From assembly GCF_056712565.1 (NCBI RefSeq), contig NZ_CM160072.1: a stretch of DNA of 64,000 nt. One strand, 5' to 3'. Shown here one piece after another: positions 4,320 through 43,142 of the stretch (position 1 is the first letter of the stretch; every line of letters starts with the position of its first letter). A program made the translations under genes and the position numbers. The notes under the pieces are model-generated. The model saw only the letters and a list, made by a program, of their open reading frames with translations. It searched no databases and was not told where the DNA came from.

Positions 4320-4450
4320 ACTACCCCCTGTTGATTTGAACAGGGATTATGTCAGGATGAGGGCGCTTTCGCCAGTTGAAGTGGTGACGGCGACCTCACA
4401 TTGTGGCAGTCTTTGCAGCACGAAAATGGAAGGATAATGAGGACAAAATG

Positions 4451-40130: not shown

Positions 40131-40790
40131 TTACTCCGCCAAAGTACGTTTTTGCTGTTCGAGATCGCGTTCAATGCCTTCACGAACATCCTGGGGGATT
40201 TTCAGCGCATCACCCAGTGCATTCAGGTAACTGCGTTCCATAAAATGGTCAATATCAATAGCCGCGCAGCTCAGGAAATAGATTTCCAGCGCCTCTTCTT
40301 CATTGCGGACCCCGGTAGCCAGGCGTTGTGGATCCAGCGGTTGTTCGATTGCCTGCTCAATGAGTACACGCCCCTTCTCTTCCACACCGGCTTCTCGCAA
40401 TTGCTGGTCGATTGCCGCACGTTCTTTGGCATCAATATGACCATCACTTTTAGCGGCAAAGACCAGCGCAAGGATCAAACGTTCCGTACGCTCATCCAGC
40501 GGCGTACTTTGCGCGCCAAACTGCGGTTCATCCTGATGCGCCGCGCGAATTTTATCTTTGTATTTATTCCACAGCACCGTACCCGCTACCGCTCCGCCGC
40601 CAACCAGTAACGCGTTTGTGCCATATTTCGTAAGAAGTTTACGTGCTGATTTATTTGCGACCAGCAGCCCAGCCAGTCCGCCTAATGCGCCAGGCACTAA
40701 AAGTTTGCCCAATCCCTGATCCGCAGACGAGGAGGTAGAAGAACGGCTTTGCCCAAGCAGGGATTGCAGTTGATTTAACCAGTTAGCCAT
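40131..40790 (-). CDS. yebE: DUF533 inner-membrane protein YebE
   Basis: 219-aa [32 protein letters not shown]... Confidence 0.75.
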
Positions 40791-41116: not shown

Positions 41117-41521
<405 letters not shown>

Positions 41522-41539
41522 TCAGGAGCGCAAGTTGCT

Positions 41540-41830
41540 TCAGGCCGCGTGTGAGGCATCTTCCTCTTCGGATTCAGCACCGACGACCTGTGGGGACGGT
41601 AATTTGCCGGTTTTCAGAATGGTGCTCAGCACATCTTTTTGTTCTGCCAGCCATAGCGAAAGGGCTTCACGTTGCTCATCTTCCATTTGCACTGGAGAAT
41701 TTGTCAGCCAGGTGTCAAGCAGATCGGCCGTATCAAGCATCTTGTCATAAGCATCGGCTTCCTTTTTGCTGGTAAACGACATTTTCTCTTCGCCCTCACG
41801 AATGACTACGTATTTAACTTCAACCGCCAT
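41540..41830 (-). CDS. yebG: SOS-inducible DNA-damage protein YebG
   Basis: 96-aa ORF MAVEVKYVVIREGEEKMSFTSKKEADAYDKMLDTADLL...; LexA box immediately upstream. Confidence 0.8.
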   Translation of the reverse strand: MAVEVKYVVIREGEEKMSFTSKKEADAYDKMLDTADLLDTWLTNSPVQMEDEQREALSLWLAEQKDVLSTILKTGKLPSPQVVGAESEEEDASHAA

Positions 41831-41847
41831 TTGCAGCCTCTCATAAT

Positions 41848-41867
41848 AACTGTGATTTTATACAGTA
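41848..41867. promoter_or_regulatory. LexA (SOS) box in yebG promoter
   Basis: AACTGTGATTTTATACAGTA: CTG-N10-CAG with AT-rich core, 18 nt upstream of yebG start. Confidence 0.75.
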
Positions 41868-41910
41868 TATTTATTTTCAGCTGGGAAATCAACATCAGCA
41901 ATAAAGACAC

Positions 41911-41926
41911 GCGCAAACGTTTTCGT
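41911..41926. promoter_or_regulatory. PurR operator in purT promoter
   Basis: GCGCAAACGTTTTCGT matches PurR consensus aCGCAAACGTTTtCnT, about 40 nt upstream of purT ATG. Confidence 0.7.
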
Positions 41927-41963
41927 TTATACTGCGCGCGGAATTAATCAGGGGATATTCGTT

Positions 41964-43142
41964 ATGACGTTATTAGGCACTGCGCTGCGTCCGGCAGCAA
42001 CTCGCGTGATGTTATTAGGCTCCGGTGAACTGGGTAAAGAAGTGGCAATCGAGTGTCAGCGTCTCGGCGTAGAGGTGATTGCCGTCGATCGCTATGCCGA
42101 CGCACCAGCCATGCATGTCGCGCATCGCTCCCATGTCATTAATATGCTTGATGGTGATGCATTACGCCGTGTGGTTGAACTGGAAAAACCACATTATATC
42201 GTGCCGGAGATCGAAGCTATTGCCACCGATATGCTGATCCAACTTGAAGAGGAAGGACTGAATGTTGTCCCCTGCGCTCGCGCAACGAAATTAACGATGA
42301 ATCGCGAGGGTATCCGTCGCCTGGCGGCAGAAGAGCTGCAGCTGCCCACTTCCACTTATCGTTTTGCCGATAGCGAAAACCTTTTCCGCGAAGCGGTTGC
42401 CGCCATTGGCTACCCCTGTATTGTTAAACCGGTGATGAGTTCTTCCGGTAAAGGGCAGACGTTTATTCGTTCTGCAGAGCAACTTGCTCATGCATGGGAG
42501 TACGCTCAGCAAGGTGGTCGCGCCGGAGCGGGCCGCGTAATTGTTGAAGGCGTCGTTAAGTTTGACTTCGAAATTACCCTGCTAACCGTCAGCGCGGTGG
42601 ATGGCGTCCATTTCTGTGCACCGGTAGGTCATCGCCAGGAAGATGGCGACTATCGTGAATCCTGGCAACCACAGCAAATGAGCCCGCTTGCCCTTGAACG
42701 TGCGCAGGAGATTGCCCGTAAAGTGGTGCTGGCACTGGGCGGTTATGGGCTGTTTGGTGTCGAGCTGTTTGTCTGCGGTGATGAGGTGATTTTCAGTGAA
42801 GTCTCCCCTCGCCCGCATGACACCGGGATGGTGACGCTAATTTCTCAGGATCTCTCGGAGTTTGCCCTGCATGTACGTGCCTTCCTCGGACTTCCGGTTG
42901 GCGGGATCCGCCAGTATGGTCCTGCTGCTTCTGCCGTTATCCTGCCGCAACTGACCAGTCAGAATGTCACGTTTGATAATGTGCAGAATGCCGTAGGCGC
43001 AGATTTGCAGATTCGTTTATTTGGTAAGCCGGAAATTGATGGCAGCCGTCGTCTGGGGGTAGCACTGGCTACTGCAGAGAGTGTTGTTGACGCCATTGAA
43101 CGCGCGAAGCACGCCGCCGGACAGGTAAAAGTACAGGGTTAA
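41964..43142 (+). CDS. purT: Formate-dependent phosphoribosylglycinamide formyltransferase 2
   Basis: 392-aa ATP-grasp [33 protein letters not shown]... Confidence 0.9.

Follow-up and report, generated by a model that had tools for sequence, protein, structure and literature searches.

The yebG gene of Escherichia coli is a textbook member of the SOS regulon, and the LexA box upstream of it is already known. For the K-12 box, the literature cites Lomba et al. 1997, Fernandez de Henestrosa et al. 2000 and Courcelle et al. 2001, and it has been listed as TATACTGTATAAAATCACAGTTATT (PMC3009722). UV induces yebG in K-12, and a UV-induced transcript 'yebG, yebF' has been described, with yebF fully controlled by LexA (PMC3009722). 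With ciprofloxacin, the log2 fold change of the yebG mRNA in K-12 was up to 4.06 and that of yebF was 3.44 (PMC11002266). With AZT, yebG was upregulated 4.4-fold and showed a 9.7-fold dependence on LexA cleavage (lexA3) (PMC11228462). The regulation of yebG has been experimentally dissected, down to a Sort-Seq map of the K-12 yebG-purT intergenic region, in which LexA and RNA polymerase sites were found for yebG; induction by mitomycin C was confirmed (PMC6003448).

Three further systems are close enough for comparison. In Salmonella, yebG is induced 41-fold with nalidixic acid and is preceded by a single box 17 bp from the ATG, and the swap of a box SNP alters yebG expression (ON subpopulation) (PMC8072944). 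The second is ruvA, which is preceded by another LexA operator of the gammaproteobacterial type. The third is the PurR operator of purT, for which the motif ACGAAAACGTTTGCGT was found by ChIP-chip in K-12 (PMC3159470). In the Sort-Seq analysis, the purT side had a PurR repressor site, which was lost in a purR deletion, as well as -35 and -10 sites of RNA polymerase (PMC6003448).

Sequence and gene context of the box

The window, i.e., the whole 64-kb stretch of DNA that was analyzed, is part of an E. coli chromosome. Among 5,426 complete E. coli genomes, 5,425 have a match to its region 41400-42100, and the identity is 100% with ATCC 11775, NU14, and others. The following features are of importance for yebG:

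41848..41867, minus strand: LexA operator (SOS box) of yebG, assigned from its sequence, heterology index, identity with K-12, and conservation
41540..41830, minus strand: yebG, 96 aa, from the open reading frame list, NCBIfam NF007475 (206 bits, cut-off 161), and RefSeq
41117..41473, minus strand: yebF, 118 aa, from the RefSeq annotation and NCBIfam NF041240
41837..41842, minus strand: Shine-Dalgarno-like GAGAGG, read from the sequence, 6 nt before the yebG ATG

The 20 bp at 41848-41867 read AACTGTGATTTTATACAGTA on the plus strand and TACTGTATAAAATCACAGTT on the minus strand, which is the strand of yebG. The latter is the same sequence as that listed for K-12. The box is an imperfect palindrome that fits TACTG(TA)5CAGTA and has both half-sites (CTGT and ACAG) intact. 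Its CTG (41850-41852) and its CAG (41863-41865) are separated by 10 nt, TGATTTTATA, nine of which are A or T. Upstream of yebG, the box ends at a distance of 17 nt from the ATG, the A of which is position 41830 on the minus strand. The sequence-only reading, which had described a CTG-N10-CAG motif with an AT-rich centre at this position and had taken the downstream gene for yebG, was thus right on both counts: the family match to NF007475 exceeds its cut-off, and the RefSeq annotation agrees.

The locus closely resembles that of K-12, as the 20-mer, its distance of 17 nt to the ATG, and the neighbors yebF and purT are the same. An alignment with MG1655 showed no difference in the box or in its flanks as far as the ATG. 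Four substitutions were found in the spacer between the -35 and -10 elements of yebG, and a further one affects the PurR box at its outermost base. The difference is one of strain background only, the window being a 100% match to genomes of the ATCC 11775 type. The Salmonella enterica box is likewise a single box 17 bp from the start codon of an orthologous, strongly damage-inducible gene (PMC8072944), but it differs in its spacer sequence, e.g., TACTGTATATAAATACAGTT in S. enterica subsp. arizonae.

In an E. coli genome that is 100% identical in this region, RefSeq names the product 'DNA damage-inducible protein YebG'. The RefSeq gene order in the identical region is ptrB, yebE, yebF, and yebG on one strand, followed by the divergent purT and then eda (kdgA). 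At the position of the box, the RefSeq records, including that of MG1655, contain no annotated binding-site feature. A scan of 41450-42050 yielded no terminator-like site between yebG and yebF, and yebF is probably co-transcribed with yebG and hence under the control of the same box.

Taken together, the yebG(-yebF) transcription unit almost certainly has 41848-41867 as its only LexA operator. For the strain from which the window stems, binding of LexA can be expected by analogy with the identical K-12 sequence. Damage-dependent and lexA-dependent induction of yebG would likewise be carried over from K-12, where the box is the same and the promoter spacer differs by the four substitutions. Beyond its correct annotation, the box matters little. 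The biological question at this locus is the function of YebG, and the operator does not address that.

Conservation of the box and the divergent purT gene

The conservation of the box was analyzed by scanning one genome per species, which yielded 80 yebG loci from Escherichia, Citrobacter, Salmonella, Kosakonia, Klebsiella, Raoultella, Erwinia, Pantoea, Serratia, Yersinia, and others. The best LexA-like site within 300 nt upstream of yebG was scored. The heterology index (HI) was calculated as the sum over all positions of ln[(consensus count + 0.5)/(observed count + 0.5)], with counts based on Table 4 of PMC3009722, which lists K-12 LexA sites. For the scores in the window, yebG and ruvA were omitted, leaving 16 sites.

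The box is kept in 79 of the 80 Enterobacterales loci, with HI values from 0.4 to 8.9 and with its end 14-38 nt before the ATG. A MAFFT alignment and a gap-free stack anchored at the box both showed that the half-sites are conserved at 0.9 or more and that the centre of the box is variable, while the values for most of the other intergenic DNA were 0.2-0.6. The block AGAGGCTGCAAATG at the Shine-Dalgarno-like site of yebG is also conserved in the alignment.

The yebG gene and the divergent purT gene are separated by an intergenic region of 133 bp, and three features belong to the purT side:

41964..43142, plus strand: purT, 392 aa, from the open reading frame list and the RefSeq annotation
41904..41933, plus strand: candidate purT promoter AAGACA-18-TATACT, from a promoter scan
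41911..41926, plus strand: PurR operator of purT, GCGCAAACGTTTTCGT, in the spacer between the purT -35 and -10 elements

This gene arrangement raises the possibility that the box is a shared bidirectional operator and that purT is also under SOS control, and the divergent orientation across 133 bp, found in 59 of the 80 loci, would be in agreement with it. Nevertheless, we assign it only a slight probability. The box lies upstream of the purT -35 hexamer, with 36 bp in between. In 21 loci (Yersinia, Serratia, Edaphovirga, Chimaeribacter) purT and yebG are not neighbors, and in 20 of these the LexA box has stayed with yebG; therefore, the box belongs to yebG and not to purT. Furthermore, the Sort-Seq features are directional, LexA for yebG and PurR for purT (PMC6003448). 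The distance, the retention, and the directional features all contradict a bidirectional control of purT by LexA. In addition, purT is absent from the listed LexA-dependent genes and has been described as SspA-dependent instead.

The PurR box had been placed about 45 bp from the LexA box on the divergent side, and the gap turned out to be 43 bp. PurR operators are 16-bp palindromes, ACGCAAACGTTTTCNT, at pur promoters, and the box of the window has a single mismatch, which is at an outermost base. It is present in all 59 loci with a divergent purT (Enterobacteriaceae, Erwiniaceae). The motif reported for K-12 is the opposite strand of the PurR box in the window and differs solely at the outermost base. 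This base (41911) is G in the window, in the E. coli GTDB representative, in E. albertii, and in some other genera, and it is A in K-12 and in most Citrobacter and Kosakonia; the palindrome core is unchanged. As in the described purT operator (PMC3159470; PMC6003448), the palindrome lies between the -35 and -10 elements of purT, an arrangement of simple repression. In contrast to the LexA box, it has a separate regulator and a separate promoter and is outside of the LexA mechanism. The PurR box represses the divergent purT promoter independently of LexA.

The yebG promoter

A promoter scan of 41450-42050 yielded exactly one promoter-like site on the minus strand, TTGATT-17-TATACT. Together with a second candidate for the -10 element, the features are as follows:

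41887..41892, minus strand: candidate yebG -35 element TTGATT, from the promoter scan, with a 17-nt spacer to TATACT
41864..41869, minus strand: candidate yebG -10 element TATACT (model A), from the promoter scan, sharing 4 nt with the promoter-distal half-site of the box
41855..41860, minus strand: alternative yebG -10 element TAAAAT (model B), read from the sequence, in the centre of the box and 9 nt downstream of TATACT

LexA operators overlap or abut promoters, and the box, which had been read as lying over the probable yebG promoter, indeed shares 4 nt with TATACT. Model B was considered only because the RNA polymerase site of yebG has been reported 9 bp farther downstream than an earlier computational annotation had placed it (PMC6003448). 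The comparative data favor TATACT as the likely -10 element over TAAAAT. Among the 81 box-anchored sequences, TATACT occurs in 68, and the two bases preceding the 20-mer on its 5′ side reach a conservation of at least 0.9. A hexamer starting with TTG is found 16-18 nt upstream of TATACT in most loci, with at least four of six matches in 48 of the 81 sequences. TAAAAT is poorly conserved in the same sequences and lacks a conserved -35 partner. The mechanism of LexA does not depend on the choice of the -10 element, because either candidate is located under the box.

The overlap with the promoter raises the question of whether the conservation might reflect just the yebG core promoter, i.e., the -10 region and the start site, with no repressor site at all. 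The upstream half-site does overlap the conserved TATACT, and the centre of the box resembles AT-rich -10 regions. However, the promoter-proximal ACAGT is conserved at 0.9 or more, and it lies downstream of the -10 element, where promoters constrain the sequence little. Fixed half-sites around a free centre are the pattern of LexA and not that of a promoter, and the swap of a box SNP in Salmonella alters the expression of yebG (PMC8072944). The probability of this explanation is smaller still than that of a shared operator. In summary, the LexA operator co-evolves with yebG and extends into the best match to a yebG promoter.

LexA binds its operators as a dimer, occludes promoters sterically, and undergoes self-cleavage that is stimulated by RecA. 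At yebG, a LexA dimer would thus occupy the operator in undamaged cells, with one winged-helix monomer on each CTGT half-site. Because the operator overlaps both the -10 element of the yebG promoter and the site at which transcription would be expected to start, bound LexA would exclude RNA polymerase from the promoter. Upon DNA damage, RecA filaments on single-stranded DNA would induce LexA to cleave itself, and the operator would be vacated. The free operator would then allow transcription of yebG and, probably by read-through, of yebF.

Match scores, other LexA-like sites, and box variants

The loose pattern CTG-N10-CAG occurs 26 times in the 64-kb window, compared with 13 matches expected by chance, and is too permissive to be good evidence on its own. 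The tighter pattern CTGT-N8-ACAG has two matches, compared with an expectation of 0.54. A search of the window with the consensus TACTGTATATATATACAGTA and up to three mismatches had zero matches. This search was too strict, because the yebG box departs from the consensus at four positions, and it was therefore replaced by the position-weighted HI.

With the 16-site matrix, the yebG box has an HI of 4.8, the lowest value in the window. In a leave-one-out calculation the HI was 5.17, which ranks seventh among the 18 known sites. The published value for yebG is 6.3 (PMC11228462); the two differ because our matrix was rebuilt and is not that of Lewis et al. 1994. Genes are usually taken as LexA-repressed when the HI is below about 15 (PMC11002266), and both values place the box among LexA operators of the gammaproteobacterial type. 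When 64 kb of sequence were simulated 60 times with a first-order Markov model, no HI fell below 8.41, and the minima had a median of 12.0. The box is far beyond chance. That it is nevertheless a chance palindrome in AT-rich promoter DNA, unused by LexA, is hardly credible: the loose pattern is indeed common, and about 12 sites with an HI of 15 or below are found per 64 kb of random sequence with our matrix, but none of the simulations approached 4.8, a box-like sequence is found at the same place in nearly all loci while the flanks diverge, and a lexA-dependent induction of yebG has been published.

The sequence-only reading had suggested an HI calculation and SOS induction of yebG as checks. 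The HI is far under the threshold, and induction is documented in K-12 with UV, ciprofloxacin, AZT, and mitomycin C, so that neither result speaks against the LexA operator.

The next-lowest HI in the window, 8.0 (published value 7.6), belongs to the known ruvA box, CGCTGGATATCTATCCAGCA, at 57179-57198 on the minus strand, which is identical to the published K-12 ruvA SOS box. A 203-aa open reading frame (56518-57129) with a GTG start begins about 50 nt downstream of it and is followed by one of 336 aa. Like the yebG box, the ruvA box is a CTG-N10-CAG motif with an AT-rich centre at a promoter, but its half-sites are CTGG and CCAG, whereas those of the yebG box, with its lower HI in the same matrix, are CTGT and ACAG. 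The two boxes serve as a positive control, as the matrix scan of the window recovered the known sites, and no other site came close to their strength.

Two weaker sites were noted. The only other CTGT-N8-ACAG match in the window is CCCTGTTCAAATCAACAGGG at 4326-4345 on the minus strand, a weak match with an HI of 15.2 in our matrix. It is 6 nt upstream of the GTG of yoaA, the product of which matches the DNA repair helicase YoaA (NF053712, 920 bits). The yoaA gene is listed as an SOS gene with an HI of 13 (PMC11228462), and the site meant there may differ from 4326-4345. A candidate for a second LexA box of the yebG-yebF-yebE cluster, AACTGGTTAAATCAACTGCA at 40765-40784, was rejected, because its HI of 11.5 is at chance level compared with the median minimum of 12.0. 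It is situated in the first codons of yebE, a gene for which a partial LexA dependence has been reported, and is probably meaningless.

Within E. coli, the yebG box is polymorphic in its centre, at 41854-41855 of the window. The E. coli GTDB representative has TACTGTATAAAAATACAGTT instead of the TACTGTATAAAATCACAGTT of the window and K-12. Its centre, ...AAAAATACAG, has an HI of 2.65, compared with 4.8 for the ...AAAATCACAG of the window and K-12. A 28-nt word of the window's 40-mer is common to 4,451 of the 5,426 complete E. coli genomes, and the roughly 18% of genomes without it presumably carry another allele. Natural variation of the box might tune the behavior of yebG between E. coli lineages, a possibility that we regard as rather doubtful.

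A related case is Yersinia nurmii, the sole exception among the 80 loci. Its best site (1154-1174 of locus L054), TCGCGGATATTAATACAGTT, has an HI of 12.9; it retains the downstream ACAGT and has a degenerate upstream half-site. Judged from this site, yebG may have left the SOS regulon in Yersinia nurmii.
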